Source: an uncultured Clostridia bacterium (GTDB taxonomy: Bacteria > Bacillota > Clostridia > Oscillospirales > CAG-272). Taken from it: a stretch of 64,000 nt of DNA. Within the stretch, counting starts at the first letter, position 1, and every line of letters starts with the position of its first letter. The stretch lies in assembly GCA_945929845.1 (NCBI GenBank), contig CAMEON010000004.1, forward strand, positions 708 through 64,707. The letters run 5' to 3'. Made by a program: the position numbers and the translations under genes. Of the stretch, positions 18,877 through 37,300 are shown piece after piece. The notes beneath the pieces were generated by a model. The model was not told where the DNA came from. It saw only the letters and a program-made list of their open reading frames with translations, and searched no databases.

Positions 18877-19124
18877 CTACAGTTCAGGTGGGGGTACGGG
18901 ATGCGGTGGGGAACTTCTTGAAAGAAGTTCCCCACACCCCTCAAGAACTTTCAAAACAGGTATTGTGTATGATTCGAAGCGTTATTCTGTCATATATTTG
19001 TTGTCGTTTTTCCAAAGGAGCCAGCGTTGCTGATGCCCAAAACAGCAGAAACGCCTTCGCGGGGCCCCTCGCCCCGTTCTACGGCGGAAAAGGGAGCGCA
19101 CGGCGGGGGTAGGTGAACTGTAAC
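18877..19124 (+). repeat. family D repeat, copy D1
   Basis: It is bounded by CTACAGTTCA...TGAACTGTAAC and is collinear with the reverse complement of 37051-37300. Its internal hairpin GGGGAACTTCTTGAAAGAAGTTCCCC lies at 18908-18933. Confidence 0.85.
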
Positions 19125-19133
19125 CAATATTTG

Positions 19134-19190
19134 CTACAGTTCAACACAATTGTTTTGAAAGTTCTTGAAGGGTCGTTTCTCCCGTACCCC
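19134..19190 (-). repeat. internally deleted partial family D copy
   Basis: The reverse complement GGGGTACGGGAGAAACGACCCTTCAAGAACTTTCAAAACAATTGTGTTGAACTGTAG matches the D left arm, without its hairpin, fused to the TIR. Confidence 0.7.
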
Positions 19191-19249
19191 TTTTCGTAAA
19201 AGCAAAACAGACCGCCGCACGGGGTGCGCCGATCCGTTCTGCTGTGCGG

Positions 19250-20077
19250 TCATTTCTTTTGCTGCTTGCACCAGATCTCCATGACCAGCCCATGGGGCAG
19301 GAGCTTGGTCAGCAGTACCTGCGCACGGATATCAAAGCCGCAGACAGACACATCCTTGCCCCGTTTCATATCCTTCAGAGCCTTGTCAATGACCTCTTTG
19401 GGGTCAAAGAACCGATTGTAGTATTTGATGGTGTCGTCCAGAACAGCGTGGTCGAAGAACTCGGTTCTGACCCATCCGGGGCAGACAGCCATCACCCGGA
19501 TGTCCCGCTTCTGCTTTTTCAACTCCACATTCAAGGCCCGGGAGAAGGACAGCACGAAGGCCTTGGTGGCCCCGTACACATTGATGTAGGGCACCGGCTG
19601 GAAGGAGGACAGGGAGTCAAGCTGGTAGATACAACTGCCAGGCTCCATGTAGGGCAGGGTGTGGTAGGTCATAGCCACCAGCGCCTTGTCGTTCAGGTCG
19701 ATCATGCGGAGCTGGTCGTCCAGGGGCAGGGCGGTGAAGGCACCGAATCGTCCGAACCCGCTGGCGTTGACCAGCACCTGTACCGAAGGCTTTTCGGCAG
19801 CCAACAGTTCCCGGTAGGTATCCAGACTGGACGCAAGACCCAGATCCAGAGGCAGAGCCCGCACCGTGGCCCGCACCTGTTCCTGCAACGCCTCCAGCCG
19901 ATCCTTCCGTCTGGCGATCAGCCACAGCTCGTCGAAGGACTGCGCCCTGTCCAGAGCCAGCACGAACTCCCGACCCATGCCGGAGGAGGCACCGGTGATG
20001 ACGGCGATCCGCTTGCCACCCGGGGCTGTGTCTCGGGTGGTCTTTCCTGCGGGGACTGTATTCTGATCTGCATCCAT
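19250..20077 (-). CDS. SDR family oxidoreductase
   Basis: The ITGASSGMG cofactor motif is present, and the length of about 275 aa is typical of classical SDRs. Confidence 0.85.
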   Translation of the reverse strand: MDADQNTVPAGKTTRDTAPGGKRIAVITGASSGMGREFVLALDRAQSFDELWLIARRKDRLEALQEQVRATVRALPLDLGLASSLDTYRELLAAEKPSVQVLVNASGFGRFGAFTALPLDDQLRMIDLNDKALVAMTYHTLPYMEPGSCIYQLDSLSSFQPVPYINVYGATKAFVLSFSRALNVELKKQKRDIRVMAVCPGWVRTEFFDHAVLDDTIKYYNRFFDPKEVIDKALKDMKRGKDVSVCGFDIRAQVLLTKLLPHGLVMEIWCKQQKK

Positions 20078-20089
20078 AGGGCGGCCTCC

Positions 20090-20515
20090 TTACTTCTTGG
20101 GTTTCTTGGCCTTGTAGGGCTTGTTCAGCTTGGCTTTCTTGACACCCTTGGCCTTCTTCAGAACGATCAGTCCGGTCTTGGGCTTGTAGCCCTCTTTCTT
20201 CAGGGCCTTGAAGCGCTTCTTTTTATAATTCCGGCGAGCCTTGGCGAATTTCCCGATGATCTCCGTGTATATCTCCAGACCTGTTTTCTTGGGCGGGACA
20301 GCAGGCTTGCCTGTCTTGACACCCAGCACGGCATCCACGGCGGCGGTGGCGGCGGCATTGGCGGCCTTTTTGGACACAGGCGCGGGACTCTTTTTGATGG
20401 CCTTCCGGTACCGTTTGTCCTTCATGACCTCCCGGACCATGCGCTTGAGTACCTTTTTCTTCTCCTTTTTGGGCATACCGTCCAGAGATGCGATTTGCGC
20501 ATTGTGCTCACTCAT
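20090..20515 (-). CDS. lysine-rich, strongly basic protein of unknown function
   Basis: 141 aa, dominated by K/A/P runs (KKEKKKVLKRM..., ...KKAKGVKKAKLNKPYKAKKPKK). It lies 42 nt after the M16 gene and 12 nt before the SDR gene on the same strand. No family recognised. Confidence 0.5.
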   Translation of the reverse strand: MSEHNAQIASLDGMPKKEKKKVLKRMVREVMKDKRYRKAIKKSPAPVSKKAANAAATAAVDAVLGVKTGKPAVPPKKTGLEIYTEIIGKFAKARRNYKKKRFKALKKEGYKPKTGLIVLKKAKGVKKAKLNKPYKAKKPKK

Positions 20516-20557
20516 GACTGCTTTTCAACCTCTCTTTCCTTCAGGGAACTGCATGGC

Positions 20558-23479
20558 TTACAGCTCCCGGATGTCTTCAAACAGGCCGGACGCACGGAGG
20601 GCGTCCTGACCGCCCACGGTAGCGTTGACTCCGGCCTCCCGGCTGTTCAGCGTCCGCACCGTGGCGGCGAAGGCGGCAAAGTCCTCACCGGTGGTGTGCA
20701 GAATGGCTTCCATGTCGGCGGTCACATCGGCGGCATTCCGGCCATTCTCCCAGCGGGACAGGGCGGCTTCGCCCTTGTCCATGGGACTCTGGGGGGCGAA
20801 GTAGGGGGCCAGACTGCTGACAATGAGACTGCCCAGCTCCTCCTCCCCGGGGATATTGGCATCCAGCCAGTCAGGCAGGTTGTCATATACGGCGTAGGTG
20901 TCGGCCACCCGGGGATCCCGGTAGGAGGCCAGCGCCAGAAGACCGTAGGGCATGACCTGGGCGAAGGCTCCGTAGGCACCGCCCTTGGCTCGGATCTCGT
21001 CCCAGAAGTATCGGGTGCCAAGGTAAGCACAGACCACCCGCATCTTCGGGGAGTAGGCGGCATCGGCTTCCGCCAGACTGTACACCCGGGCGCAGTAGTT
21101 GACCTCGCCGGGGATGCTCACGCCCTTGGCGGCCTTGCCGGCCAGTGTGCGGACAGCGGGTGCCATCTGTGTACCATCCCCCAGGAACAGCCCGGCCAGG
21201 GCACCCTGCCAGGCGGCATAGGCGGCCTCGCTTCCGATGAGGAAGGCCACCGGCCTGACCGTGCGGAACAGCACGCTGCGGACACGCTCCAGTCCGGCGA
21301 TCAGGGTATCTGCCTCCCCGTCGAAACGGTCGGCCAGGGCGGTCATGCGGCGGTAGGCGGACACGCCCTTCACCTGATCCCGGATCACGCCGCAGGCGGA
21401 CAGGGAAGCCTCGGCGATACCCTCGGCGGTGGCGTGTCCCCCGCCGATCAGGCGGCTCTTGAGTCCGGCGGTGTTGGAGAAGAGACGGCGCAGGATGGTG
21501 CGGTCAAAGACAGGGGCGGCTATGTAATCGCCCAGCAGAGCCACCGCTTCTGCCAGCCGCTCCTCCGGCGCATTGACGGTCAGGCGCAGGTAGGAGGCGG
21601 TACTGTCAGCACTCAGCCCTCTGACACCCACATCAATGGAGGCATACAGTACGGCGTGCAGAGCTACCCGACGGCCGGTCAGAGTCGGCACATCCTGCCC
21701 ATCGACAGGCAGGTCAAACAGGGCATCCTTCAGGCAACGGACATAGAACAGATCCCCGGTGTCCAGCCCGGACAGGTCAAAGAGCAGGGAAGCGGCGGCA
21801 ATGCCGTTGGTGTCAGCCGGGAAGTACAGGGAGAGAAGCTCCTTGCCGTTTACCGTTATGGTATGCGTCTCCACATCCTTATATTCAGCATGGGGATCAA
21901 TATCGGCGGGGGTCAGATGAGGAATGGAGGCTTCGGCTTCGGGGGAGTCGGGGGATGTCAGGTACTCTTGGAAGGCCGCCATGTGAGCCTCCAGTGCCTC
22001 GTAGGCACCGGGGGTGGCGTGGCGTTTGTCCGATTCCTTGGCCAGCCAGGCATCCATGCGTTCCCGCTTCTCCTGGGAGACGGTGCGGGAGGGGACGCAT
22101 CGGGTCAGTGCCCAGTGGTCGCTGTGGAGAATGTACCGCCGGATCAGCTTGTCAAAATACTGCGGATCCTGGGAGAAGGCCTGGCGGAGGGCGGCCAGGT
22201 CATCCGGCGTGGCGGCCTCGCCCCGCTGGACATGGGTGCGGAACAGGAATTCCATGATGCGGAAGCCGCTATCCACGGAGAGGGCCGCCCGGCGGCAGTC
22301 GGTCTCGTGGTTATCCAGAAGGTCGGAGAGGCGGGCGGTATCCAGACCCTTGTCTACCAGGTCTGTCAGGGTGTCCGTCACCACCTGGCGGAAGGCTTCT
22401 GCCTGCTCCGGCTGGGTCTTGCTCAAGGTCAGGTATACGAAGGGCTGGCGGACGGAGCTCTCGCAGGCCATGGAGAAGTCCTGACCGATACCGGCATCCA
22501 ACACCGCCTTGGACAGGGGAGACTCGGTGGTCTCTGCCAGGTAGCGGGAGAGGATGGAGAAGGCCAGTGCTTCCTCCGTCCGGGCACCGTCGCCCAGCAC
22601 GCAGGCCAGCATCAGGTGGGTGTTGTCCGCCGTATCCTCGTTGTCCCCGACCTGGTAGTAGGCTATGCCGTCGGGGCTGACCACCGGGGATTGCAGAGGA
22701 GCCGGTTCCGGGCGGGGGTATCTGGGCGGCTCGTGGGCGGAGAGGACATCATTGATCTGAGCCAGCTCCCGGTCAAGACCCAGTCTGCCGGACAGGTAGA
22801 AGATGGCGTTATCCACACCGTAGAAGCGCCGGTATGTCTCCTGGAACTGCTCGTAGGTCAGCGTAGGGATGGCGGCAGGGTCTCCGCCGGAATTGAAGCG
22901 GATGAACAGATCCGGGTACAGCTGCTTGAGAATCTGCAAGTACATGATCTCATAGGGCTGGTTGTCGTGCCCCTGCATTTCGTTGAACACCACGCCGGAA
23001 CAACGCAGGCCGCCCTGGCCGTCCGGCTCCAGGTGCCAGGCTTCCTTCTCAAAGATCCGCCGGTCGGAGAGGAGCAGAGGGTGGAACACGGCATCCAGGT
23101 AGACCGTCATCATGTTCATGAAGTCCTGCTCATTGGTGGAAATGAAGTAGTACAGCGTCTTGTCCTCATAGGTCATGGCGTTCAGATCCACGGCCATGGA
23201 GGTCTTCATCAGGTTGACGAAAGGCTCCTTGAGGCGGTAGGACTCCGACCCATCCAGCGTGGAGTGCTCAATGATGTGGAATACGCCGGTGTCATTCTCC
23301 GGCAGGGTACGGAAGCCCACGCTGAACACCATCTGTCCGTCGTCCCGGTCTGAGTAGTACAGGGTGGCACCGGTGGCCTCGTGGGTCAGCTTCCAATAGT
23401 TGGCGTTCATGGTGGGTATCTCGTGTACTCCCTCCACCCGGAAGCCTTGAATCTTTTCTCCGATTTTCCATGCAGGCAT
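20558..23479 (-). CDS. M16 (insulinase/PreP-like) zinc metallopeptidase
   Basis: The inverted zincin motif HIIEHSTLDGS (HxxEH) lies near the N-terminus. The protein is about 970 aa. GAAGGAGG precedes the ATG. Confidence 0.85.
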   Translation of the reverse strand: MPAWKIGEKIQGFRVEGVHEIPTMNANYWKLTHEATGATLYYSDRDDGQMVFSVGFRTLPENDTGVFHIIEHSTLDGSESYRLKEPFVNLMKTSMAVDLNAMTYEDKTLYYFISTNEQDFMNMMTVYLDAVFHPLLLSDRRIFEKEAWHLEPDGQGGLRCSGVVFNEMQGHDNQPYEIMYLQILKQLYPDLFIRFNSGGDPAAIPTLTYEQFQETYRRFYGVDNAIFYLSGRLGLDRELAQINDVLSAHEPPRYPRPEPAPLQSPVVSPDGIAYYQVGDNEDTADNTHLMLACVLGDGARTEEALAFSILSRYLAETTESPLSKAVLDAGIGQDFSMACESSVRQPFVYLTLSKTQPEQAEAFRQVVTDTLTDLVDKGLDTARLSDLLDNHETDCRRAALSVDSGFRIMEFLFRTHVQRGEAATPDDLAALRQAFSQDPQYFDKLIRRYILHSDHWALTRCVPSRTVSQEKRERMDAWLAKESDKRHATPGAYEALEAHMAAFQEYLTSPDSPEAEASIPHLTPADIDPHAEYKDVETHTITVNGKELLSLYFPADTNGIAAASLLFDLSGLDTGDLFYVRCLKDALFDLPVDGQDVPTLTGRRVALHAVLYASIDVGVRGLSADSTASYLRLTVNAPEERLAEAVALLGDYIAAPVFDRTILRRLFSNTAGLKSRLIGGGHATAEGIAEASLSACGVIRDQVKGVSAYRRMTALADRFDGEADTLIAGLERVRSVLFRTVRPVAFLIGSEAAYAAWQGALAGLFLGDGTQMAPAVRTLAGKAAKGVSIPGEVNYCARVYSLAEADAAYSPKMRVVCAYLGTRYFWDEIRAKGGAYGAFAQVMPYGLLALASYRDPRVADTYAVYDNLPDWLDANIPGEEELGSLIVSSLAPYFAPQSPMDKGEAALSRWENGRNAADVTADMEAILHTTGEDFAAFAATVRTLNSREAGVNATVGGQDALRASGLFEDIREL

Positions 23480-23544
23480 GGTCAGTCCTCCTTCTGCGTT
23501 TCAAAATTACCGTATCTGTGCGTCAATGACTGGATTTTACCACA

Positions 23545-23573
23545 ATTATACCACATTCCGCGGTATATTGCAA
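23545..23573 (-). promoter_or_regulatory. sigma-A-type promoter for the M16 operon (TTGCAA-17 nt-TATAAT)
   Basis: The reverse strand reads CTTGCAATATACCGCGGAATGTGGTATAATTG. Confidence 0.6.
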
Positions 23574-23686
23574 GGGATTCCGGACATAATAATTGCAGGT
23601 TTTCCCGGAGAGATCACCGTTCGGCCAAGCGGCCTATGAACAAATCGCTTAACCGTATGCTTCATATGTGCAATACCTGGCATAAC

Positions 23687-23926
23687 GGGCGGATATGGAA
23701 TCTGCTCAAACTGTGTTCGTCTCCGTATACGGATGTCGCCCCTACTACACTGTAACGATTAAAACTTAACATTTATATTTGAGGTTGTTCCAAGCATCCT
23801 TGTAGGGCGGGGGCTTGCTCCCGCCGGAGAAGACCCCGATAAAACCTCCCTTGTGTAAAGAGCGTTACATCAGCGAAGCATGACGGAGTATCGGGAAATA
23901 AAGTTTCATTGGTTGCACCGTACTAC
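23687..23926 (+). repeat. REP/BIME-like mosaic repeat cluster, locus E2 (truncated)
   Basis: It has GGGCGGATATGGAAT..., CCGTATACGGATGTCGCCCCTAC (23723-23745), and a single GTAGGGCGGGGGCTTGCTCCCGCC at 23802-23825. The second inverted arm and about 70 nt are missing relative to E1, E3 and E4. Confidence 0.8.
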
Positions 23927-24007
23927 AATATATGTGTCATGTATTTCCCGGGGCATCAGCGAAAGCACATGTACATCCGGACGGTCAAAGGAGGAAAGGG
24001 TATCCAT

Positions 24008-25084
24008 ATGCAACAGACAGACAGTAAGCCCCTCCGCAGTGAGGCGGGGAGCATCATCCGGCCGGGCACCGAGATCATCGGGGCGGCCTCCGTGGTGGGC
24101 GGCCGGGAGCATGAAGGCCCCCTGGGGGACAGATTTGACTTTTACAATCCGAAGGATCGCTTCGGGGAGGACACCTGGGAGAAGGCGGAGTCGGAAATGC
24201 AACGGATGGCACTGTCCGCCGCCATGCACAAGGCCGGTGTCCGGGAGGAGGAGGTGGACCTGCTCTTTGCCGGGGATCTGCTCAACCAGTGCGTTGGCTC
24301 GTCCTACGGTCTGGAAGCCTACAAGATCCCCTACCTTGGTCTGTACGGAGCCTGCTCCACCTCGGCGGAGGGACTGCTGTTGGCATCAGCCATGGTGGGG
24401 GCGGGGTATGCCTCCTGTGCGGCGGCGGTGACATCCTCCCACAATGCGGCGGCGGAGCGGCAGTTCCGCACCCCGCTGGAGTACGGCGGCCAGCGTCCCC
24501 AGAGCGGCCAGTGGACGGTCACGGGAGCCGGGGCCTTCATCATCACCCCGGCCTGCTCCAAGGGTGGCTGTCCCATCTATGCCCCCGGTGTCAAGCCGCT
24601 GGCTCGGGTCAGTGCCGCCCTGCCGGGGCTTGTCCTTGACCGGGGTGTGACCGACCCCAACAACATGGGGGCGGCCATGGCTCCGGCGGCGGAGAGCACG
24701 CTGTGTCGGTTCTTTGCGGCCAGCGGCACCGGCCCGGATAACTATGACTTGATCGTTACCGGAGACCTGGGCTGGGAGGGAAGCCGGATCCTCTGCGACC
24801 TGATGGACACCCACGGCTATGACATCCGGAAGAAACACAACGACTGCGGCATGATGATCTATACAAAGAACACCCAGGACACCCACAGCGGTGGCTCCGG
24901 GTGCGGGTGCGGGGCTACCGTGCTGGCTTCTTACCTGTTGCCCAAGCTGGCGGCAGGGGAGATACACCGCCTGCTGTTCATGGCCACCGGAGCCCTGATG
25001 AGCCCGGACAGCGTCAAGCAGGGGCTGTCCATTCCCGGCGTGGCACACCTTCTGTGCCTGGAGGCACCGGGTGCGCAGGTGTGA
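24008..25084 (+). CDS. spoVAD: stage V sporulation protein AD
   Basis: Start is residue 34 of ORF 23909..25084, after AAAGGAGGAAAGG. The protein has a thiolase-like fold, and ...YLGLYGACSTSAEGLLLA... is typical of SpoVAD. Confidence 0.85.
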   Translation: MQQTDSKPLRSEAGSIIRPGTEIIGAASVVGGREHEGPLGDRFDFYNPKDRFGEDTWEKAESEMQRMALSAAMHKAGVREEEVDLLFAGDLLNQCVGSSYGLEAYKIPYLGLYGACSTSAEGLLLASAMVGAGYASCAAAVTSSHNAAAERQFRTPLEYGGQRPQSGQWTVTGAGAFIITPACSKGGCPIYAPGVKPLARVSAALPGLVLDRGVTDPNNMGAAMAPAAESTLCRFFAASGTGPDNYDLIVTGDLGWEGSRILCDLMDTHGYDIRKKHNDCGMMIYTKNTQDTHSGGSGCGCGATVLASYLLPKLAAGEIHRLLFMATGALMSPDSVKQGLSIPGVAHLLCLEAPGAQV

Positions 25085-25152
25085 GCAGTATAACCAGCTC
25101 AGAAAAATTTTGGCCCTGGTATTTTTCTATCGTTGGAAAGGAATGATCAAAT

Positions 25153-25518
25153 ATGGAGTGGCTGAAATATGTGTGGTCCTTTTTGGTGGGCGGGGCACTA
25201 TGCGTCGTTGCCCAAATCCTGATAGACAAAACCAAGCTGACCCCCGCCCGGATCCTGGTCGGGTATGTGACGGCGGGGGTGATCCTGGGGGCCATCGGCG
25301 TGTACCAGCCCCTGGTGGACTTCGCCGGGGCAGGGGCGGCCACGCCGCTGACCGGATTCGGCAACCTGATCGCCAAGGGCATCCGGAAGGCGGTGGATGA
25401 GCGGGGTCTGCTGGGTGTCCTGACCGGCGGCCTGACAGCGGCGGCAGGCGGGACAGCGGCGGCGCTGGTCTTCGGCTACCTGGCGGCACTGATCTGGCGG
25501 GGGAAGCCCAAGGGGTAA
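25153..25518 (+). CDS. spoVAE: stage V sporulation protein AE (SpoVAEB-type)
   Basis: 121 aa. MEWLKYVWSFLVGGALCVVAQILIDKTKLTPARILV...PLTGFGNLIAKG matches SpoVAE. Confidence 0.85.
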   Translation: MEWLKYVWSFLVGGALCVVAQILIDKTKLTPARILVGYVTAGVILGAIGVYQPLVDFAGAGAATPLTGFGNLIAKGIRKAVDERGLLGVLTGGLTAAAGGTAAALVFGYLAALIWRGKPKG

Positions 25519-25658
25519 GGGAACCACTGATTGATTCGGCGGCGCATCTTCGGCACATCTTTTCCCGTCTGCTTCTTGCCGAAAAAAGCGTTTTTCGCAA
25601 TCGCAGACTAAAAAAATCTGTACAGAATCTGCACCACCTCATTCAATCAGTGTTTCCC
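25519..25658 (-). mobile_element. MITE-like element, family C, copy C3 (internally deleted)
   Basis: GGGAACCACTGATTGATTCGG...CATTCAATCAGTGTTTCCC, flanked by TAA on both sides. About 28 nt of the central palindrome region is missing. Confidence 0.8.
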
Positions 25659-25662
25659 TAAG

Positions 25663-26388
25663 CTATGAGTACCTTCTGGGGGAGGATACCTTGATGCCAA
25701 AGCCCTCCCGGAGCTTGTCGATGGCGGCCTTCTCAATGCGGCTGACATAGGAGCGGGAGATGCCAAGCAGGGCGGCGATCTCCCGCTGTGTCATGGCGGG
25801 GGTGTCGCCAAGGCCAAAGCGCAGGAGAATGACCTGCTGTTCCCGGGGATCCAGACGGCTGTGGATCATGTGCATAGCCCGCTCCGCCTCCACCTTGCGG
25901 AAAATCTCCTCGGTGATGCACTCCTCCGAGCTGATGACATCCATGTATGTCAGGGGGTTGCCGTCCCTGTCCACATCTATCGTGTCGTTCAGGGACACCT
26001 CGCCGCAGGTCTTTTTCTGTGCCCGGAAGTACATAAGGATCTCGTTCTGAATACATTTGGCCCCGTAGGTGGCAAAACGGGTGCCAGCCTCCGGCTTGAA
26101 GGTGTCCACCGCCTTGCACAGACCGATGGTGCCGATGGATACCAGATCCTCCTGATTCCGGCTGGAGGCATAGTATTTGCGGACGATATGGGACACAAGC
26201 CGCAGGTTGTGGAGGATGAGCTTCTGCCGGGCCTCCTCGCGGACGGCGGGATCCGGGTGGTTCCGGGACAGGCGGAAGGCCTGCTCTTCCTCCGCACTGT
26301 CCAGGGGCGGGGGAAAATTCTGAGCCGTACCTACGCCCAGGATCAGGTGAAACAGACGGGTGATAGGGGAAAGAAGCAATCCGAACAT
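25663..26388 (-). CDS. sigK: sporulation sigma factor, pro-sigma-K type
   Basis: A short hydrophobic pro-sequence is followed by NFPPPLDSAEEE. GTRFATYGAKCIQNEILMYFR and TQREIAALLGISRSYVSRIEK resemble SigK more than SigE (ISQSYISRLEK) as I recall them. The gene is not interrupted. Confidence 0.7.
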   Translation of the reverse strand: MFGLLLSPITRLFHLILGVGTAQNFPPPLDSAEEEQAFRLSRNHPDPAVREEARQKLILHNLRLVSHIVRKYYASSRNQEDLVSIGTIGLCKAVDTFKPEAGTRFATYGAKCIQNEILMYFRAQKKTCGEVSLNDTIDVDRDGNPLTYMDVISSEECITEEIFRKVEAERAMHMIHSRLDPREQQVILLRFGLGDTPAMTQREIAALLGISRSYVSRIEKAAIDKLREGFGIKVSSPRRYS

Positions 26389-29732: not shown

Positions 29733-29799
29733 CATTGGCCTCCCAGCTGAGCTGTAACCGCATTCACATCCACACTCTGTGAAACTTTTCGCTTCTGCC

Positions 29800-29828: not shown

Positions 29829-29901
29829 ATAGGCATACATCCCTGCCGGGCGACTGCCGGGCAGGGAGAATCATGGGGGGAGATCCCGAAAAAGAGAGGG
29901 T

Positions 29902-30879
29902 ATGGGTATGGCGACGCAGATTTCTGACAAGATCACAGGGGTGTACACAAGGATCAAAGAGAATATTGGAAAGGTGATCGTCGGCAAGTCGGACACCATT
30001 GACATGCTCATCGTTTCCATGCTGTGCGGCGGCCATGTACTGCTGGAGGATGTGCCCGGCACAGGAAAGACCATGCTGATCAAGTCGCTGGCGGCCTCGG
30101 TCAGCTGTCAGTATAAGCGGATCCAGTTCACGCCGGATCTTCTGCCTTCCGACATCACCGGTGTCAACTTCTTCAACATGAAGAAGTCGGAATTTGAGTT
30201 CGTACCCGGCCCCATCTTCGCCAACATCGTGCTGGCGGATGAGATCAACCGGGCTACGCCCAAGACCCAGTCCGGGCTTCTGGAGTGCATGGAGGAGACC
30301 CAGGCCACCATTGACGGAAAGACCTTCAAGCTGGCTCAGCCCTTCATGGTCATCGCCACCCAGAACCCGGTGGAGAACATGGGCACCTTCCCCCTGCCGG
30401 AGGCCCAGCTGGACCGCTTCCTGATGAAGGGCAAGATGGAGTACCCCACCCACGGGGAAGGGGTGGACATCCTGGCCCGCTTTGACAGGGAGAGCCCCCT
30501 GGACACCCTCCAGCCGGTGGTCAGTGCCGAGGAGCTGACCGAGGCCATCCGGGAACTGCCCGGGGTGTACATCAGCCGGGAGCTGATGGGTTACATCACC
30601 TCCATCGTGGAGAAGACCCGCACCTACCCCAAGGTGCTCCTGGGCGTGTCCCCCCGTGGTGCACTGGCTCTGATGAAGGCCGCCAAGGGGTACGCCGCCA
30701 TCGCCGGGCGGAGCTATGTCATTCCGGATGATGTGAAGCGGGCCGCCCACCCGGTGCTGGATCACCGGCTTACCCTGGAGAATGCCGCCCGCATCCGCAA
30801 GAACGCCGCCTATGAGGTCATTGAGGATGTGCTGGGCATGGTCACTGTACCCACCGAGACGGTATTCGAGGACAGATAA
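29902..30879 (+). CDS. MoxR-family AAA+ ATPase
   Basis: HVLLEDVPGTGKTMLIKSLA (Walker A), VLADEINRATPKTQSGLLECMEE (Walker B/sensor), and a length of 325 aa. Confidence 0.9.
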   Translation: MGMATQISDKITGVYTRIKENIGKVIVGKSDTIDMLIVSMLCGGHVLLEDVPGTGKTMLIKSLAASVSCQYKRIQFTPDLLPSDITGVNFFNMKKSEFEFVPGPIFANIVLADEINRATPKTQSGLLECMEETQATIDGKTFKLAQPFMVIATQNPVENMGTFPLPEAQLDRFLMKGKMEYPTHGEGVDILARFDRESPLDTLQPVVSAEELTEAIRELPGVYISRELMGYITSIVEKTRTYPKVLLGVSPRGALALMKAAKGYAAIAGRSYVIPDDVKRAAHPVLDHRLTLENAARIRKNAAYEVIEDVLGMVTVPTETVFEDR

Positions 30880-30882
30880 CAG

Positions 30883-32085
30883 ATGGGACAGGTAGGTATG
30901 GATGCGTGGAGCCACCCGGCCTCCCTTGCGGCGGAGCTGTCGGCGGAGGCAGTGGCCGATGGGATCCAGCGGGTGATCACCTCCGTCTGGTTCCGGGTGA
31001 TCCTGATCCTGTTGGGTGTCCTGCTGGTGCTCTGGTTGCTCCTGCGGCTGTATGGGGCTATGCGGAGCCGGCGGCTGGGTCGGATCGTGTATGAGCGCAC
31101 CTTCTCTCAGGAGGGCGTGTATGAGGGGGAGACGGTGGAGCTGATCGAGACCGTCCGCAATACTGGGTTCTTTCCCCTGCTGGGTGTGGATATCGAGTCC
31201 TACTTCTACAATGAGCTGGAACTGGAGGAGTACCAGGCGGATCCGGGAAGCACCATGCAGTACTGCATCAGCCGATTCAACCTGTGGCCGTACATGCAGA
31301 TCCGCCGGCACCACCGCATCACAGCGAAAAAGAGGGGTCAGTACGGACTCCATGTAGCGACCATTTATAACAAAAAGAACCCCATCACCCTGGAGGCCCC
31401 GGCGGAGCTGTATGTCTACCCCCGGGCCATTCCCCTGAATCTGCCGGTGCTGGCGGTGGGACGGATGCAGGGAGAGTATGTCAGCAACCGCCCCCTGTTC
31501 ACGGATCCCTTTTCGCTGGCCGGCATCCGGGACTATCGTTTCGGCGATCCGGTGTCCCAGATCAACTTCAAGGCCTCGGCCCGTGTGCCCATGACAGGCT
31601 TTTCCTCCTCGCCCCTGAAGGTGAACGCCCGGGACTTCTGCGCCTCCCGTCGCCTGATGGTGTACATGGATTTTCACCTGCCTATGGGCAGTAAGATAGA
31701 CGGGAAGGAGTATGAGCAGCGGGCAGAGCGGGGCCTGTCCTTCTGTGCCGCCCTTTTGCGGGATGCGGTGTACGGCGGGTATCGGGTGGGCTTTGCCGCC
31801 AACTGCCGGAATATCACCGGAGAGATGTCCACTCGTTTTTCCTGCGATGGCTCCGAGGCTCACCTGACAGCCATGATGAAGGAAATGGCCCGGATGAACC
31901 CCACCGACGGGGCTTCCTTCGCTTCGCTCCTGGAGCATGACATCGCCGACTGTATGACGGACACCGAGATCATCATCGTAGCCTTTGACACCCACGAGGA
32001 GGTGCTGGACAGGATCAGCACCCTGGAGCAGTCCGGCAACTCGGTACAGCAGATCATTCTGGAGGAGGTGGAGGATGATGAGTGA
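30883..32085 (+). CDS. DUF58 domain protein (MoxR partner)
   Basis: An N-terminal TM pair is followed by AGIRDYRFGDPVSQINFKASAR, the DUF58 signature. It lies 3 nt after moxR. Confidence 0.8.
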   Translation: MGQVGMDAWSHPASLAAELSAEAVADGIQRVITSVWFRVILILLGVLLVLWLLLRLYGAMRSRRLGRIVYERTFSQEGVYEGETVELIETVRNTGFFPLLGVDIESYFYNELELEEYQADPGSTMQYCISRFNLWPYMQIRRHHRITAKKRGQYGLHVATIYNKKNPITLEAPAELYVYPRAIPLNLPVLAVGRMQGEYVSNRPLFTDPFSLAGIRDYRFGDPVSQINFKASARVPMTGFSSSPLKVNARDFCASRRLMVYMDFHLPMGSKIDGKEYEQRAERGLSFCAALLRDAVYGGYRVGFAANCRNITGEMSTRFSCDGSEAHLTAMMKEMARMNPTDGASFASLLEHDIADCMTDTEIIIVAFDTHEEVLDRISTLEQSGNSVQQIILEEVEDDE

Positions 32086-33616
32086 CAGAAGAACCACCGA
32101 GGCGGAGCGGAATGTTCGCTATACCCAGGCCTCCCAGCGGTTTGCCGCCGCCTCGGACTGGCGGGTATATCTGGAGTTGGCGGATGAGTTCCGGGCACTG
32201 GACACCTACAAGGATTCCGCCCAGAAGTATGTCCAGTGCGTCCGTGCCGCCTCCGCTCCGGCCTACCGGGAGATACAGGCCAGACTGACCGCCCCGGGGG
32301 AGAAGACAGCTACAGCCGGGGATTACCGGGAGGCGGCTCGTATCATGGGTCTGATCCAGGACTATCAGGATGCCCGGGAGCTGATGCGGGTGTATACCGT
32401 CAAGGCCAATGCCATGGTTTATGAGGAAGCCGTGGCACTGGTGTCCGATTCCCAGGCCACCTGTGAGGCGCTGGGCCGGGGGGTGGAGCTATTCAAAAGC
32501 ATCCGTGGCTTCCGCAACACCCGGGAGCTTTATGAGCGGTACGAGAAGTATTACTTTGAAAAGATGTACGCCGCCGGACTGGCTTTGATGCAGAACGGCC
32601 ATGTGTGGAGCGAGTTTGAGGAGGCCGCTGAGATTTTCGAGAAGATCTCCGCCTACTCCGATGCCGCCGACCAGGCCGCCGCCTGCCGCAAGAGGGCCAA
32701 CCGCATGAAGCCCAAGAGGCAGGTAAAGGCGGAGTCCGGCGCAGGGAAGACAAAGGACAGTGCGAACGCCAAAACGGATACAGAGACAGAGCGAATCATA
32801 AATGCCAAAACGGCAAGGACAGAAAAATCCGCCCCGAAGCGGGCGGATCCAGCCGAGAAAATGAAGACCAAGCGGGTCAAAACACCCACCGATGAGACGG
32901 TCAGCGCCGTGGCGGAGGTGTGGCGCACACTGGATAAGCGTCGCCTGGTCTTCTGCCTCCTGTGGCTGGCTGTGCTGGTGGCCTGTGTGTACGGCTCCAT
33001 CCGGGTGTCCCTGATCGCCAAAGCGGACGAGTACGGCTGGGTGGCTACCCACCTGCACACCCTGCAAACCGGATTTACCCTGGGTTCCCTGGTGTCCCTG
33101 ATCCTGGGTGTCCGCTGTTTCCTGCACATGCTCACCGCCAGTATGCGCCGCAAGCTGGCCGGAGCCGCCCTCTCCCTGGTCAGGCGGCTGACCGCCCCGG
33201 TGGTCAAGGCCCTGAACAAACTGTTGCTTTCCATCGGCATAGACCTGAGTCGCCGCAATCGTCTGGGCGGGCGGGACGAAAAGTCATTCGTCTATGGAGA
33301 TGAGGAGAAGGAGGGCAAGGCGGGGAAGAAGAGGCTGAAAAACGGAATGAAATGGGCGGAACAGCCGGACAACGCCGCCCGGGTGCGCTTCATTTTCATT
33401 GACTACATGATCCGTCGGATCCGGCAGGGCTACTTCATGCGCCGCACCATGACCCCCGCGGAGATCAGCCGGGATATGTCACTGGAGGGTGACGAGGAAG
33501 AGCTGTTCCGGGTGTACCAGATCGCCCGGTACGCCGGACGGGGGGACGCCAACCGGGAGATCTCGGATGCCACAGTCGGCAAGCTCCGGGCCATCAATCA
33601 ACGCCGCACCGGATAA
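32075..33616 (+). CDS. membrane protein with helical YKDS/YxDA-type repeats and a DUF4129-like C-terminus
   Basis: Start is residue 31 of ORF 31985..33616 (ATGATG after GGAGGAGGTGGAGG) and overlaps the DUF58 stop by 11 nt. Two TM segments are followed by ...TPAEISRDMSLEGDEEELFRVYQIARYAGRGD, which I recall as DUF4129-like. Confidence 0.6.
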   Translation: MMSDRRTTEAERNVRYTQASQRFAAASDWRVYLELADEFRALDTYKDSAQKYVQCVRAASAPAYREIQARLTAPGEKTATAGDYREAARIMGLIQDYQDARELMRVYTVKANAMVYEEAVALVSDSQATCEALGRGVELFKSIRGFRNTRELYERYEKYYFEKMYAAGLALMQNGHVWSEFEEAAEIFEKISAYSDAADQAAACRKRANRMKPKRQVKAESGAGKTKDSANAKTDTETERIINAKTARTEKSAPKRADPAEKMKTKRVKTPTDETVSAVAEVWRTLDKRRLVFCLLWLAVLVACVYGSIRVSLIAKADEYGWVATHLHTLQTGFTLGSLVSLILGVRCFLHMLTASMRRKLAGAALSLVRRLTAPVVKALNKLLLSIGIDLSRRNRLGGRDEKSFVYGDEEKEGKAGKKRLKNGMKWAEQPDNAARVRFIFIDYMIRRIRQGYFMRRTMTPAEISRDMSLEGDEEELFRVYQIARYAGRGDANREISDATVGKLRAINQRRTG

Positions 33617-33712
33617 GCACAGGCGTTGCGTACGCCGGACACGGGCGAACCGTAGAAACCGTCATGGAAAGATACGCAAGCAAAAAAGCAGAAACGGAAA
33701 GATCACACGGAT

Positions 33713-34270
33713 ATGGAACAGGAAACAGTCACGGATACACAAACGCAAACCCACGAGCATTCGCATACCCACACACATACACACAAGCACAGGCACAGAC
33801 GCAGGCGATGGCTCAAGCGGTGCCTGCGCGGGCTGGTCATTCTCGCCATCCTGTGTATGACGCTCCTTGCCATCGCCTTGACCGCCGCTTTCCTGGCCAA
33901 GGATGTATTCCTATGGCAGGGAATGTACACGGACAGCGATATGCTGGATGAGCAGACCAATGAGACCATCAAGACCCTGGCACTGGAGGCAGTGAAAGAC
34001 AGATGCTCCTCGGTCTTCACGGTGGATCAGGACGCCATATATGACGAAGACTCCATCCTGCACATCGTACAGTACGGCGGGTATGTCTACTCCGAGCGGG
34101 CAGTGTTCATCATGGTGGATCCCCACTTCATGGATACGCTGGAGCCAGGGGAGAACGGCGAATACAGCCTGGCCGTCACTGTGGCACGGCCGGAGAAGAA
34201 TACATACCGGCTCACCGTGCGCCCGGTGGACGGGACTTACAGGATCGTGTCCTTTCAGCTCAACGACTGA
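33713..34270 (+). CDS. single-pass membrane protein with a His/Thr/Arg-rich N-terminus
   Basis: MEQETVTDTQTQTHEHSHTHTHTHKHRHRRRRW is followed by a TM helix and a ~120-aa extracytoplasmic domain. The N-terminus is encoded by CA-rich low-complexity DNA. Confidence 0.6.
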   Translation: MEQETVTDTQTQTHEHSHTHTHTHKHRHRRRRWLKRCLRGLVILAILCMTLLAIALTAAFLAKDVFLWQGMYTDSDMLDEQTNETIKTLALEAVKDRCSSVFTVDQDAIYDEDSILHIVQYGGYVYSERAVFIMVDPHFMDTLEPGENGEYSLAVTVARPEKNTYRLTVRPVDGTYRIVSFQLND

Positions 34271-34293
34271 CCGGACGCCCTGCCCGCAAATGA

Positions 34294-35973
34294 TCACACC
34301 TGCCGGATGCAGGTACGGCTGTCGGAAAAGGAGCGGGTGACGGCGGCCAGGGCGGCTACAGTGTCCGAAGCCAGAAGGCCGTACTCACCGGTGCTCTCAG
34401 CGGCCCTGTCCCCGGCCATGGCGTGGAGCAGGACCCCGGCGGCGGCTACCTGACCGGCGGACAGATTCCGGCCCAGCCGATGGCGGTTCTGCACCAGCAG
34501 GGAACCAATGACCCCAGCCAGTACATCCCCACTGCCGCCCTTGGCCATGCCTGCATTCCCGGCGGCACAGATCCACACCTGACCGTCCGGGGAGGCGATG
34601 ACGGTGTGGGCATCCTTGAGAACCACCACCACACCGTAAGACCTGGCAAAGGACAGTGCCGTGCCGGGCAGGTCAGCCAGTATCTCACCCACCGCCCGGC
34701 CGCACAGCCGGGCCATTTCTGCCGGATGGGGGGTGATGACCGCCTGCCGGTGCGGGTCGGCCAGCAGGGCGCAGGCCCACAGGTCGGGGTGCCTGGAAAG
34801 CAAAGTCAGAGCATCCGCATCCAGCACAAGGGGCAGGGGCACCTCACCGGGAGCCGGGGGCGTCCGGGAGAGCAGGGTGCGCAACACGGTACAAGACGCC
34901 TCGCCAGTGCCCAGCCCGCAACCGGCCACCAGACCGTCCGGATTGGCAACAGCGGTCAGAAGGGCGGCCGGGTCGGGTGCCTCCCGGTCGTACAGGGTCA
35001 GGACGGCCTCCGGCAGGGCAGTCTGGAGGATGACCCTATTGTCGGCAGGCGTGACCACCTGAGCCAGCCCCACGCCGCAACGCAGAGCCGCCGAGGCGGA
35101 CAGGATGGCAGCTCCGGCCATTCCATAGGAACCGCACAGGAGTGCCAGGCGGCCATAGGTGCCCTTGTGGGAGCGGCGGCTCCTGGGCGGGAGGGCGACC
35201 CGGAGCATATCCTCCCCCACGAGGCAGGCCGTGGGAGCATCCGCCGGGTTTGCGTCAATCGCCGGGTCGGAGGCAGGGTGGCACACGGGGGACAGGTCGA
35301 TGCCAATGTCCGCCACCACCACCTCCCCGCAGAGCGCCGCCCCGGGGTAGAGGAGCAGACCGGGCTTGAGGGCCTGCATGGTGACCGTGACATCCGCCGG
35401 CAGAGCCGCCCCGGGCACAGCCCCGGTGTCGGTGTACACACCGGAGGGAATGTCTATGGCCAGTACCGGACGCCCGGTCTCCGCCACACGGCGGAGAAAT
35501 GCCCCCATGACCCCCTCCACCGGGCGATCCAGCCCGATACCGAACACGGCATCCACCACGGCACAACAACCGGACAAGGCATCCGTCGCCCGGTCGGGAG
35601 GCAGAACAGGGATACCTGCCTGCCGTGCCAGCGCATACTGCCGGGCGCATTCCTGACTCATGCGGTCGGTGTCCGGCAGACCCTCCGGGGTCAGCCGACC
35701 CAAGTATACCACTGTTACCGGGCGGCTTTCGCCCTGGGAACCGTCCGCAAGGAAGCGGGCGATGGCCAGCCCGTCACCACCGTTGTTCCCACTACCGCAA
35801 AGCACCAGCACAGACCCCTGGGGGAACAGGGAGGGACGGCCAAGCAGACAGGACACCGCCGCCCGAGCCGCCCGCTCCATCAGGGTGTGGGAGGGAATGT
35901 GCAGCTCCCGGATGGTGTGCTCGTCACAAAGCCGCATCTTGGCGGCAGTCAGTACGGGTAAGGATGTGTTCAT
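34294..35973 (-). CDS. nnr: bifunctional NAD(P)H-hydrate epimerase / ADP-dependent dehydratase
   Basis: Start is residue 32 of ORF 34294..36066, after AGGAGGA. LVLCGSGNNGGDGLAIARFL is the YjeF-N domain and GGSGDVLAGVIGSLL is the kinase-like C domain. Confidence 0.85.
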   Translation of the reverse strand: MNTSLPVLTAAKMRLCDEHTIRELHIPSHTLMERAARAAVSCLLGRPSLFPQGSVLVLCGSGNNGGDGLAIARFLADGSQGESRPVTVVYLGRLTPEGLPDTDRMSQECARQYALARQAGIPVLPPDRATDALSGCCAVVDAVFGIGLDRPVEGVMGAFLRRVAETGRPVLAIDIPSGVYTDTGAVPGAALPADVTVTMQALKPGLLLYPGAALCGEVVVADIGIDLSPVCHPASDPAIDANPADAPTACLVGEDMLRVALPPRSRRSHKGTYGRLALLCGSYGMAGAAILSASAALRCGVGLAQVVTPADNRVILQTALPEAVLTLYDREAPDPAALLTAVANPDGLVAGCGLGTGEASCTVLRTLLSRTPPAPGEVPLPLVLDADALTLLSRHPDLWACALLADPHRQAVITPHPAEMARLCGRAVGEILADLPGTALSFARSYGVVVVLKDAHTVIASPDGQVWICAAGNAGMAKGGSGDVLAGVIGSLLVQNRHRLGRNLSAGQVAAAGVLLHAMAGDRAAESTGEYGLLASDTVAALAAVTRSFSDSRTCIRQV

Positions 35974-36101
35974 GTGAAGGATATCCTCCTGAAACAGTGT
36001 TCTAAAAGGTATACAATGGCTGTGAAAGTCTTTGAAAGGGTCTGTACTCTCCGTAACCCCGGCCACTTCAAAAGAAAACTTTCATTCGGCCAAAAAAGGT
36101 C

Positions 36102-36130
36102 TTGACAAATGCCCGGAGTTGGTATATAAT
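36102..36130 (+). promoter_or_regulatory. consensus sigma-A promoter for tRNA-Gly (TTGACA-17 nt-TATAAT)
   Basis: TTGACA at 36102-36107 and TATAAT at 36125-36130, 19 nt before the mature tRNA 5' end. Confidence 0.7.
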
Positions 36131-36149
36131 AAGGGTGTCGAGCAGGTAA

Positions 36150-36223
36150 GCGGGCATAGTCTAATGGCAAAACTCCAGCTTCCCAAGCTGGTTATGCGGG
36201 TTCGATTCCCGTTGCTCGCTCCA
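36150..36223 (+). tRNA. tRNA-Gly (anticodon CCC), CCA encoded
   Basis: Hand folding gives acceptor GCGGGCA/TGCTCGC (one G-U pair), anticodon arm CCAGC-TTCCCAA-GCTGG, T arm GCGGG-TTCGATT-CCCGT, discriminator T, then CCA. The D stem GTCT/AAAC has one C-A mismatch. Confidence 0.9.
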
Positions 36224-36256
36224 GAAAAACCCAGGTTTACCCTGGGTTTTTGCTTT
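36224..36256. terminator. bidirectional terminator between tRNA-Gly and bioY
   Basis: AAAAACCCAGG-tttac-CCTGGGTTTTT has an A-tract on the left and a T-tract on the right. Confidence 0.8.
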
Positions 36257-36277
36257 TTCGCCGCATGAGCGGTCGCA

Positions 36278-36856
36278 TCAGCGGCTGGCGAAATGATCCT
36301 TCACCAGGCGGACACTGCGGCCAATAGCCACAGCGGCCACGCACTTGAACAGGTCGAAGGGGATGAAGGGGAACACGCAGGCGGACAGAGCGGGAACCAC
36401 AGCCATGTCCATCACGGCGCAGAACTGAATGGTACCGCCAATGTAGCAAACGGCCACACCGATGATGCAGGCGACAATCTCCCACACATAGCCCCACACC
36501 TTGTGCTGGCTGGCCTTGGGGAAAGCCATACGGAGCAGACCCACCAGAGGTGCTACCAGGATGTAGGACCACAGGTAGCCGCCGGTGGGGCCGACCAGCA
36601 CCTGGAAGCCGCCATGCCATCCGCTGAACACAGGCACGCCAACAGCACCCAGAACCAGGTAGAGGGCCACGGACTGGACACTGTCCCGGGGGTCAAGCAC
36701 AACGCCTGCCAGCAGGACGGCAAAGAGTCCCAGGGAGATGGGCACCGTGCCGATGGGCACGGACATAGGTGCCAGCACGCAGATCAGGGCGGCAAAAATG
36801 GCGTTGAATACCATTTGCCGCAGGAGGCGGTGCTTGGAACGGACAGCAGTACTCAT
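36278..36856 (-). CDS. bioY: biotin transporter BioY
   Basis: Start is residue 33 of ORF 36278..36952. The GPTGGYLWSY and FPFIPFDLFK motifs are present. Confidence 0.85.
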   Translation of the reverse strand: MSTAVRSKHRLLRQMVFNAIFAALICVLAPMSVPIGTVPISLGLFAVLLAGVVLDPRDSVQSVALYLVLGAVGVPVFSGWHGGFQVLVGPTGGYLWSYILVAPLVGLLRMAFPKASQHKVWGYVWEIVACIIGVAVCYIGGTIQFCAVMDMAVVPALSACVFPFIPFDLFKCVAAVAIGRSVRLVKDHFASR

Positions 36857-37050
36857 GGGTGTAGGATTCCTTTCTGTTTTGCAATCGTGCAGACTTTGGT
36901 CTGACAAGAAAAATTCCCCTATAGTATAACATAAAAGGGAGTGATTGTGCAACAGCCTTTTACGACAAAATTACAGGCTCTGTCAGCGCATCAAACGGTG
37001 AAATTGCCGGGCTTGACATCCGTAACTCCATTTACGGACTGAACTGTACA

Positions 37051-37300
37051 TTACAGTTCACCTACTTCCCAAGAGGACGCTCCCTTTTCCTCCTTAGAGC
37101 GGGGCGAGGGGTCCCCGCGAAGGCGTTTCATCTGTTTTGGGCAACAGTTATGCTGTCTCCCCTGGAACAATGAATGACAAAAATAACATCAAACAACGCA
37201 TCGAACATAAATATATACACATTTTGAAAGTTCTTGGGGGTCTGGGGGCTTCTTTCAAGAAGCCCCCAGGCGTTCTCCCGTACCCCACCTGAACTGTAAC
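37051..37300 (-). repeat. family D repeat, copy D2
   Basis: TTACAGTTCACCTAC...CCACCTGAACTGTAAC. The reverse complement is collinear with D1. The internal hairpin GGGGGCTTCTTTCAAGAAGCCCCC lies at 37244-37267. Confidence 0.85.

Follow-up and report, generated by a model that had tools for sequence, protein, structure and literature searches.

RESULTS

Family D and its two copies in the window

The stretch of DNA analyzed here, referred to as the window, comprises 64,000 nucleotides of contig CAMEON010000004.1 (C4) from an uncultured Clostridia bacterium. The window contains two full-length copies of a repeat of about 250 bp, Family D. One copy, D1, lies between genes for a plsY-like acyltransferase and a short-chain dehydrogenase (SDR), and the other, D2, lies between BioY and DUF1846 genes, as an earlier sequence-only reading of the window had correctly described. 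We found that Family D is a MITE (miniature inverted-repeat transposable element) that shares its termini with an IS66-family insertion sequence, that it inserts upstream of promoters, and that it carries a hairpin module that is found across the genus and is better preserved than the inverted ends of the transposon. The host assembly (G000; 2.36 Mb in 104 contigs, 58% GC, no contig shorter than 2.5 kb) bears the signature of a metagenome-assembled genome. The labels G003, G013, G017, G022, and G024 denote sister genomes of the same genus.

D1 is a 249-bp element on the forward strand (positions 18876 to 19124) identified by alignment and nhmmer, and D2 is a 251-bp element on the reverse strand (37050 to 37300). 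As proposed, D1 is collinear with the reverse complement of D2, and the two are 79% identical end to end, but a base-by-base reading makes each element one base longer than first described, so that D1 begins with GCT and D2 ends with GTAAT. The left terminal inverted repeat of D1 is GCTACAGTTCA (18876 to 18886; consensus, GTTACAGTTCA) and the right one is TGAACTGTAAC (19114 to 19124), which together with the preceding GGGGTAGG forms a 19-nt match to the end of the parent element described below. The 8-bp sequence CAATATTT flanks D1 on the left (18868 to 18875) and is repeated identically on the right (19125 to 19132). D2 is flanked by the direct repeat GTACAGT, read on the element strand (37301 to 37307, with its partner at 37043 to 37049), and its target is itself a terminus-like TACAGTTCA sequence.

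The hairpins reported in both copies are present and longer than originally described, forming near-perfect palindromes around a 2-nt center. In D1 the hairpin is of type A, with 14-bp arms GTGGGGAACTTCTT and AAGAAGTTCCCCAC around the center GA (18906 to 18935, forward strand), and in D2 it is of type B, CTGGGGGCTTCTT-GA-AAGAAGCCCCCAG (37242 to 37269, reverse strand). A conserved box, CAAGAACTTTCAAAA, follows the hairpin on its 3' side in every copy and in each species examined from the genus, at 18942 to 18956 (forward strand) in D1 and at 37222 to 37236 (reverse strand) in D2.

Family D is a miniature transposon

Iterated nhmmer searches of the whole genome collected 222 Family D matches, 74 of them full length. 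Most elements are about 250 bp long, with long variants of 300 to 327 bp, and the inverted ends measure 11 bp (GTTACAGTTCA...TGAACTGTAAC). A perfect 8-bp target duplication flanks 28 of 72 full copies, and at least 7 of 8 positions match in 34 of 72, compared to 1 of 72 in a shifted control; duplications of other lengths hardly ever match. Six copies that are 98 to 100% identical to D1 lie at unrelated loci, each with its own duplication, which indicates recent movement of the family. Many insertions used TACAGTTCA-like targets, i.e., the ends of other copies. Family D contains no conserved open reading frame (ORF), and the sole 100-amino-acid ORF over D1 is a stop-free run. The mobile repeat bounded by inverted ends that had been postulated from the sequence alone therefore has the properties of a MITE: it is small, noncoding, and multicopy, has inverted repeats and a target duplication of fixed length, has moved recently, and shares its termini with an autonomous element of the IS66 family.

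Two further fragments that had been assigned to the family proved to be real. The first, an older rearranged copy adjoining D1 (19133 to 19190), consists of the terminus GCTACAGTTCA, 9 nt, and an inverted left arm that lacks a terminal repeat and from which the hairpin is exactly deleted. The second (62801 to 62845, reverse strand) is a left-arm remnant, GGGTAAGAGATACGGGAGAACGCCTGGGGGAGCTTTCAAAACAG, that keeps only part of the 5' arm of the hairpin. A 19-nt sequence, CAATATTTGCTACAGTTCA, is present twice at the D1 locus, 257 bp apart (18868 to 18886 and 19125 to 19143). The rare start GCT is common to D1 and the adjoining older fragment, while sisters of D1 that are 99% identical begin with GTT, a pattern suggestive of local gene conversion between these neighboring termini.

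About 100 more GTTACAGTTCA termini in the genome belong to other miniature families with unrelated interiors, some of which carry hairpins of the GTAGGGGCG...CGCCC type. One 504-bp copy of such an element, with a different interior, occupies positions 54621 to 55124 of the window, and lone GTTACAGTTCA-type ends of other families are found at 1941, 5122, and 29758. In all, 115 of 208 contig ends join one network of these repeats, which thus account for the breakpoints of more than half of the contig ends in this metagenome-assembled genome. A second, unrelated high-copy repeat begins with GGAAACGCTGATTGAATGAGGTGGTACAGATTCGGTACAGATTTTTTCGTCTGCGATTGCGAAAAAC and is present in about 115 copies, nearly always after TTAA, TTAG, or CTAA; it occurs in the window at 3745, 9022, 25657, 29274, and 48867 (C4:4452, 9729, 26364, 29981, and 49574), and many contigs terminate in it. 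Illumina adapter sequence (AGATCGGAAGAGCGTCGTGTAGGGAAAGAGTGTAGATCTCGGTGGTCGCC) was found at two contig ends, the 5' ends of C21 and C86.

An IS66-family insertion sequence has the termini of Family D

A search for a cognate transposase, which the sequence-only reading had called for, succeeded. In this assembly, no transposon lies between the termini; pairs of termini 0.8 to 4.7 kb apart enclose ordinary host genes, and the DDE_Tnp_1, ISL3, rve, ISLre2, and ISKra4 models had no match in the genome. The single match to the Transposase_mut model was a 52-residue remnant in an unrelated low-GC stretch (C24:1749-1904) that is unrelated to the termini. In the surrounding region (C24:1600-1910), an IS256-like N-terminal fragment is fused to an IS630-like C-terminal motif in one short ORF, which represents a degenerate transposase without relation to Family D. 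Three contig ends run from a right-arm-type terminus into a common AT-rich sequence, and scanning metagenome contigs with a 30-nt piece of this sequence retrieved three contigs from the human gut. Each of these carries an element of 1,718 to 1,725 bp with the ends GTTACAGTTCACCT(A/C)CC. The candidate element end was not found in 28 other genomes of the genus.

A single ORF of 518 amino acids fills this element, with a frameshift splitting it in two of the three contigs. Its product matches PF03050 (DDE_Tnp_IS66) with 86.9 bits (cutoff, 23.1 bits; E value, 2e-24) over profile positions 4 to 282 of 284 and has a DUF6444 match at its N terminus. The ORF reaches the very end of the element and stops at a TAA codon within the terminal inverted repeat (GGT GAA CTG TAA C; L016:3395-3410). 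Both ends of the insertion sequence are found with 98 to 100% identity at contig ends of G000, one at C40, C82, and C32 and the other at C24, indicating that the genome carries it as an unassembled repeat; a diverged C-terminal remnant is present at C72. Only the terminal 11 to 19 nt are common to the insertion sequence and Family D, and the insertion sequence has neither the hairpin nor the box.

Three observations weigh against this assignment. The NCBIfam model transpos_IS66 is matched over positions 1 to 385 of 387, but its score of 152 bits is below the 180-bit cutoff; the interior of the insertion sequence is not assembled in this genome; and the three metagenome copies show no clean target duplication. 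The last of these is possibly due to chimeric assembly across the repeat, as the two flanks may come from different copies. The DDE_Tnp_IS66 domain, the single ORF typical of the ISBst12 group, and the 8-bp duplication on the miniature copies all agree with membership in the IS66 family; the termini begin with GTTA, a close variant of the 5'-GTAA start of that family. Therefore, we conclude that the parent of Family D is a 1.72-kb, single-ORF, ISBst12-like insertion sequence of the IS66 family that is present in the same genome but unassembled. An ISLre2/TnGBS (Mutator-like) mover was ruled out in favor of this IS66-type enzyme, as models NF033529 and NF033572 had no match in this genome or in 29 genomes of the genus.

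The parent element resembles the ISBst12 group (e.g., ISBst12 of Geobacillus stearothermophilus and ISDge4 of Deinococcus geothermalis) in having one ORF, a DDE_Tnp_IS66 domain, a coiled-coil N terminus, an 8-bp duplication, and short inverted repeats that begin with GT.AC. The single-ORF layout of this group has been described, and its recently described member ISDge4 makes an 8-bp duplication and has the termini GTAACTGCTCAGCA (PMC12898284), with which the terminus of the parent element, GTTACAGTTCAGGT, is identical at 9 of 14 positions. Classic IS66 members begin with GTAAGCG or GTAACCG (PMC12888890), and another published terminus of the family begins with GTAACTGC. The element differs from the ISBst12 group in that its termini have GTTA instead of the usual GTAA and in a very high copy number for a 2.4-Mb genome. 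Like MITEs derived from insertion sequences in general, Family D shares only its termini with the parent, but its interior is a captured host repeat rather than a deleted insertion sequence.

Insertion occurs at two distances upstream of promoters

A promoter was scored next to a terminus when it matched TTGACA-16/18-TATAAT with no more than one mismatch per hexamer and was directed away from the element. Such a promoter accompanies 138 of 343 termini genome-wide. The start of the −35 box lies 38 to 42 nt from the terminus in 93 of the 343 and 49 to 52 nt away in 31, whereas 343 random positions yield 1.75 promoter matches, with 0.05 falling in either distance window. The promoter-facing end is the left one in 26 elements, the right one in 16, and both in 7. 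The two peaks are one helical turn apart, as if the transposase read one face of the DNA. In the window, the promoter of the plsY-like gene (TTGACA, 17 nt, TAGAAT; 18796 to 18824, reverse strand) is directed away from D1 and has its −35 box start 51 nt from the left end of the element. The promoter of the DUF1846 gene (TTGAAA, 17 nt, TATAAT; 37340 to 37368, forward strand) is directed away from D2, with its −35 box start 39 nt from the left end of D2.

Junctions of the insertion sequence itself obey the same rule, with distances of 39, 40, and 41 nt at three junctions in this genome and of 39, 40, and 40 nt on two of the metagenome contigs. Together, these results demonstrate an insertion rule, with a preferred distance of about 40 bp to the downstream −35 box and a less frequent one of about 50 bp. 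Promoter-guided insertion is known from Mutator-like transposases (TnGBS/ISLre2 and some ISKra4), which act at a distance of 15 to 17 bp and whose symmetric-ended elements insert in both orientations (PMC3942029). Family D and its parent are like TnGBS/ISLre2 and part of the ISKra4 group in their fixed distance upstream of sigma-A promoters, 8- to 9-bp duplications, terminal C, and, with symmetric ends, insertion in both orientations. They differ in having an IS66-family transposase and in the distance of 38 to 42 or 49 to 52 bp. In the literature searched, promoter-distance targeting was not reported for IS66-family elements.

The two arms of the hairpin covary

The sequence-only reading held that changes in one arm of the hairpin are mirrored in the other, so that the stem is kept as a stem. 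For a wider comparison, the short-type hairpins of the genome were aligned from the center outward. In 92 copies, pairs 1 to 13 are Watson-Crick in 1,185 of 1,196 cells, and three or four different Watson-Crick forms occur at five of the pairs. Among the 41 distinct hairpins of this genome, 98.5% of 533 cells are paired, compared to 81.5% in shuffles, and 8 of 13 pairs have changed on both sides. Two-sided changes occupy 96 cells versus 26.9 ± 4.3 in shuffles, a value reached by none of 500 shuffles. Pairing drops to 40 to 68% when the partner is slid by one to three columns. One-sided changes are limited to 3 of 533 cells in this genome and 0 of 325 in other genomes of the genus. The result was replicated with 25 distinct hairpins from 14 other genomes of the genus, which are 97.8% paired, with 7 of 13 pairs changed on both sides and 54 two-sided cells versus 14.2 ± 3.8. 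The pairing statistics exceed those of every shuffle and every slid control.

Variation is concentrated at the base of the stem, for which at least 18 different sequences were recorded, each with its exact complement (e.g., GTGGGGAAC, GTGGGAAAC, CTGGGGGC, CTGGGCCC, TTGGACCC, GGGGGGAAGAC, TCGGGACCC, and CAAGGGGGC). In this genome, there is hardly any variation in the six apical pairs and the loop-proximal CTTCTT..AAGAAG, and the two central bases are free to vary. Between species, the apex is the same and the stem bases are highly diverse (CCAAGAAAC, CTTAAACCC, GGAGGAAAAC, and others). G-T and A-C mismatches are equally rare (3 versus 4).

Long variants of 300 to 327 bp keep the closing stem, which covaries by type, and hold two or three extra hairpins in the slot. 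These have compensatory variants of their own, such as GCAATTGC/GCAATTGC versus GCACTTGC/GCAAGTGC and GCACTGGC/GCCAGTGC versus GAACTGGC/GCCAGTTC. Some long variants have a further hairpin inserted within a loop, and in some copies the apex is replaced, giving a single perfect stem of 20 to 21 bp. In about ten Family D copies, the hairpin slot holds long inverted repeats with arms of at least 40 to 55 bp, of the types CTGG-AGCCGTAAAAAAAGTCCCCCGCAGAAAAGGTAAAATAA... and ...AGCCGTAAAAAAGTCAAAAAATGAGCGGATGCGTGGGGTCGAGGGGTCGCAG. These end 21 contigs, and the assembly never crosses them (e.g., the 3' ends of C5 and C38 and the 5' ends of C18 and C39). In one sister species (G003:C116:18575-19212), the center of the hairpin is inverted (CTTCTT-TC-AAGAAG) with the orientation of the flanks unchanged, the footprint expected from template switching or cruciform-mediated inversion.

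The hairpin module is genus wide and older than the transposon

A BLAST search with D2 matched 22 of 24 sister genomes, mostly only over positions 21 to 80, which correspond to the hairpin module. The module consists of G-rich short repeats, the hairpin apex CTTCTT-GA-AAGAAG on a GC-rich base of 7 to 9 bp, and the box, (A)CCCC(C/T)CAAGAACTTT; the sequence of the base is free but nearly always Watson-Crick paired. A covariance model of the hairpin has 1 to 102 matches in each of 29 of 29 genomes of the genus, of which single matches near an E value of 1e-4 may be due to chance. At an E value of ≤1e-5, it had no match in 120 genomes from elsewhere in the order, among which were five other genera of the family. 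The exact 28-mer of the type B hairpin, searched in 185,579 species genomes, was found only in two contigs of one uncultured Clostridium genome, exact matching being too strict to show distribution. Among the genomes tested, high frequencies of the terminus GTTACAGTTCA are confined to G000 and to G013, its closest relative (180 sites), with background levels in G022, G024, G003, and G017. The module is thus present in species without these termini, and the insertion sequence lacks the hairpin, which indicates that the hairpin is older than the transposon and independent of it. The left half of the Family D interior is a preexisting, genus-specific palindromic module that was not derived from the insertion sequence. 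Family D is therefore composed of IS66-type ends around a resident module, a spacer, and a right arm, with the module as a passenger.

Outside the transposon, the module lies at the 3' ends of genes. In G024, 14 of the 15 modules with enough upstream sequence lie 6 to 102 nt past the stop codon of a long ORF on the same strand, with short, G-rich tandem repeats before the module and ACCCCCAAGAACTTTTC after it, and in other species 21 of 27 modules follow a same-strand stop codon. In G000, 37 of 90 short modules have no upstream terminal repeat and form solitary units of about 60 to 110 bp. For modules without inverted ends in this genome, an ORF was required to have coding-like codon-position GC periodicity, because the background of a plain ORF test is 53% in this GC-rich genome. 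By this test, 24 of 34 lie 12 to 91 nt (median, about 21 nt) after a same-strand stop codon, compared to 9 of 34 with a gene end on the opposite side (P = 6e-4). A 1.1-kb intergenic region in a sister genome (G022:C1:780371-783419) consists entirely of tandem arrays that form a mosaic of 129-bp units with this hairpin and 235- to 259-bp units with three other GC-rich hairpins, like bacterial interspersed mosaic elements (BIMEs).

The module resembles the repetitive extragenic palindromic (REP) elements and BIMEs of enterobacteria and pseudomonads. It is a short GC-rich palindrome of about 30 nt, occurs in tens to hundreds of extragenic copies just after stop codons, builds mosaics and tandem arrays with other hairpin modules, and keeps its stem by compensatory changes. 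It differs from them in its host, a genus of Firmicutes (Clostridia), in the absence of a GTAG head, in its invariant apex and variable base, in its fixed orientation to the upstream gene, and in its G-rich short repeats and conserved 3' box. A mobilizer of the REP-associated tyrosine transposase (RAYT) type was not supported, as PF01797 (Y1) was not found in the most module-rich genomes, G000, G013, G022, and G024, although in metagenome-assembled genomes its absence is not proven. Structured MITEs of other bacteria include bcr1 of the Bacillus cereus group, Correia elements of Neisseria, and RUP and BOX of pneumococcus, and compensatory changes have been reported for bcr1. Like Family D, these are small, noncoding repeats that are mobile, have inverted ends, are modular in build, and are predicted to fold stably. 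Family D differs from them in its parent family and target rule and in that its structured part is older than, and independent of, the mobile element.

The module is better preserved than the transposon ends

Preservation was compared among features of the same 48 full-length copies. In the terminal repeats, 35 of 1,056 bases (3.3% per base) are off consensus, whereas broken pairs amount to 1 in 1,248 stem bases (Fisher P = 2e-11), so that in resident copies the bases of the inverted ends have been lost about 40 times faster than stem pairing. The nonpalindromic box is likewise preserved, with 3 of 624 bases off consensus. Variants private to one or two copies number 0.67 per column on average for the whole element and 1.2 for the left terminal repeat but about 0.04 for the hairpin and box, apart from the two central bases. 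The module is thus better preserved than the inverted ends of the transposon itself. As the insertion sequence has no module and copies already in place gain no protection from selection for mobility, selection on resident copies, copy repair, or both are left as explanations.

These observations bear on the idea that the hairpin is required in cis for transposition, as a site for the transposase or a host factor or as a structure that pairs the ends, with only intact-stem copies leaving descendants. The stem is kept in all subfamilies of an actively transposing element, and GAACT is common to the box and the terminal repeat, as this idea would have it. We nevertheless consider it very improbable, because the autonomous insertion sequence dispenses with both hairpin and box, other miniature families combine the same termini with different interiors, the module is abundant in species without these termini and in copies without inverted ends, and private mutations are depleted in inserted copies, where transposition selection could not act.

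Copy repair is harder to set aside. The hairpin could be a functionless DNA palindrome that maintains itself by template switching and gene conversion among more than 150 copies, the covariation being a mutational footprint. Perfect stems are known to be created and mended by replication template switching (PMC8794818). One-sided (G-U) intermediates are nearly absent, which suggests that two-sided changes arise by copying one arm from the other and not by two independent hits, and the hairpins nested in the loops of older ones also fit template switching. The same account is favored by perfect palindromy up to the 2-nt center, by the symmetry of G-T and A-C defects, and by the inverted center in G003. 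Left-arm and interior types reassort among Family D copies, and part of the conservation could thus be due to gene conversion. Forces besides selection could accordingly give the pattern. The earlier reading, that the stem is kept as a stem, either as RNA or as a DNA hairpin, is nevertheless supported. A purely mutational process meets three difficulties. The box CAAGAACTTTCAAA is not palindromic and has no opposite arm from which it could be repaired, but its protection is equal; the apex does not vary across 15 species, whereas the stem base is free to do so; and the bias in position and strand toward stop codons is not predicted. Template switching alone cannot explain these features, and we regard a self-maintaining, functionless palindrome as rather unlikely. 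Templated copying appears instead to be the route of change, with selection on a folded 3'-end structure as the filter.

An invariant 14-bp apex, with a third AAGAA-like motif about 20 bp away, could also be read as double-stranded DNA. The palindrome would then be an operator for a dimeric nucleoid-associated or regulatory protein that contacts the half-sites CTTCTT/AAGAAG and a third site, AAGAAC, in the box, or a cruciform that absorbs supercoils near promoters. Enterobacterial REP/BIME elements bind gyrase and IHF. Many MITE copies lie between divergent promoters, and the AT-rich center and GC-rich base favor extrusion. A reader of double-stranded DNA, however, needs no covariation of the flanking 7 to 9 bp, the native site of the module is after stop codons and in one orientation, and no candidate protein was identified. 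Such a role in DNA is correspondingly improbable.

At the RNA level, the sense orientation and short stop-codon distance of solitary modules across the genus are evidence for a role of the hairpin, and on the basis of position and orientation the module is probably a folded 3'-end structure of the upstream transcript, i.e., a protective or terminating RNA hairpin. We give the least credence to the idea that every copy is a gene for a discrete small RNA, complete with promoter and terminator, and that the hairpin belongs to this RNA. The stem covaries and the loop TTGAAA resembles a −35 hexamer, but the element lacks a U-tract terminator and is oriented at random to its neighbors, and a copy number of more than 200 would be unusual for a single small RNA. 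The Rfam scan proposed by the sequence-only reading was run with Rfam 15 and gave no relevant family: the sole gathering-level match in the window was a tRNA, and at E values up to 10 only chance-level matches fell over D2. With RNAalifold, applied to both strands of the whole element, no helix other than the hairpin had two-sided changes, and a right-arm helix on the reverse strand had one-sided changes only.

Several findings count against a 3'-end RNA structure as well. The hairpin is followed by AGACCCCCAAGAACTTTCAAAA and not by a U-tract, and no T-run lies beside the stem on the reverse strand, so that it is not a canonical intrinsic (Rho-independent) terminator. The equal rarity of G-T and A-C defects provides no strand asymmetry that would point to RNA. 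Within the MITE, the module faces either way relative to promoters and neighboring genes (no orientation bias toward neighboring genes was found with crude gene calls), and even in its frequent locations between divergent genes, where little read-through is to be expected, its pairing is perfect. Gene conversion among the copies, as noted above, belongs on the same side.

DISCUSSION

At roughly 55%, we favor the interpretation that Family D is a MITE moved by an IS66-family enzyme, with promoter-linked insertion, that has captured a genus-wide hairpin module acting as a 3'-end structure. Family D would be nonautonomous and moved in trans by the 1.72-kb ISBst12-like insertion sequence, whose transposase is predicted to recognize GTTACAGTTCA termini, to make 8-bp duplications, and to place one end or the other upstream of a sigma-A-type −35 box, usually at a distance of about 40 bp and more rarely at about 50 bp. 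The native form of the module would be the one without inverted ends, in sense orientation about 12 to 45 nt after stop codons like REP elements at gene 3' ends, and the MITE would carry this resident module as a passenger. The hairpin may fold at the 3' end of the upstream transcript, where it would be protective or terminating. Changes in both arms would arise by template switching between them, and selection would remove unpaired variants. The more specific proposal that promoter measuring of an IS66 type, over four or five helical turns from the −35 box and with insertion in either orientation, is coupled with a RAYT-free, REP-like 3'-end RNA module that was captured and amplified by IS66-type ends is offered tentatively.

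The known kinds of element involved are an IS66-derived MITE and REP-like palindromes. What is new here is the IS66-family parent, a replicated test of covariation, a REP-like module from gene 3' ends as the cargo of a MITE, and the preservation of that module beyond that of the transposon ends. The enzyme family that moves the most abundant repeat of this genome can now be named as IS66, and the mobile shell with its IS66-type ends can be separated from the structured cargo, the genus-wide hairpin module. The module also provides a test case for separating selection on a fold from template-switch repair as the source of compensatory changes.

If the 40-bp rule belongs to the IS66-family transposase, then promoter-guided insertion has evolved outside the Mutator-like group, and the rule can be tested with one 518-amino-acid protein and a 250-bp substrate. 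To our knowledge, no REP-like system has been well characterized in Firmicutes. With its clean covariation, invariant apex, and fixed place after stop codons, the module described here is a candidate for such a system.

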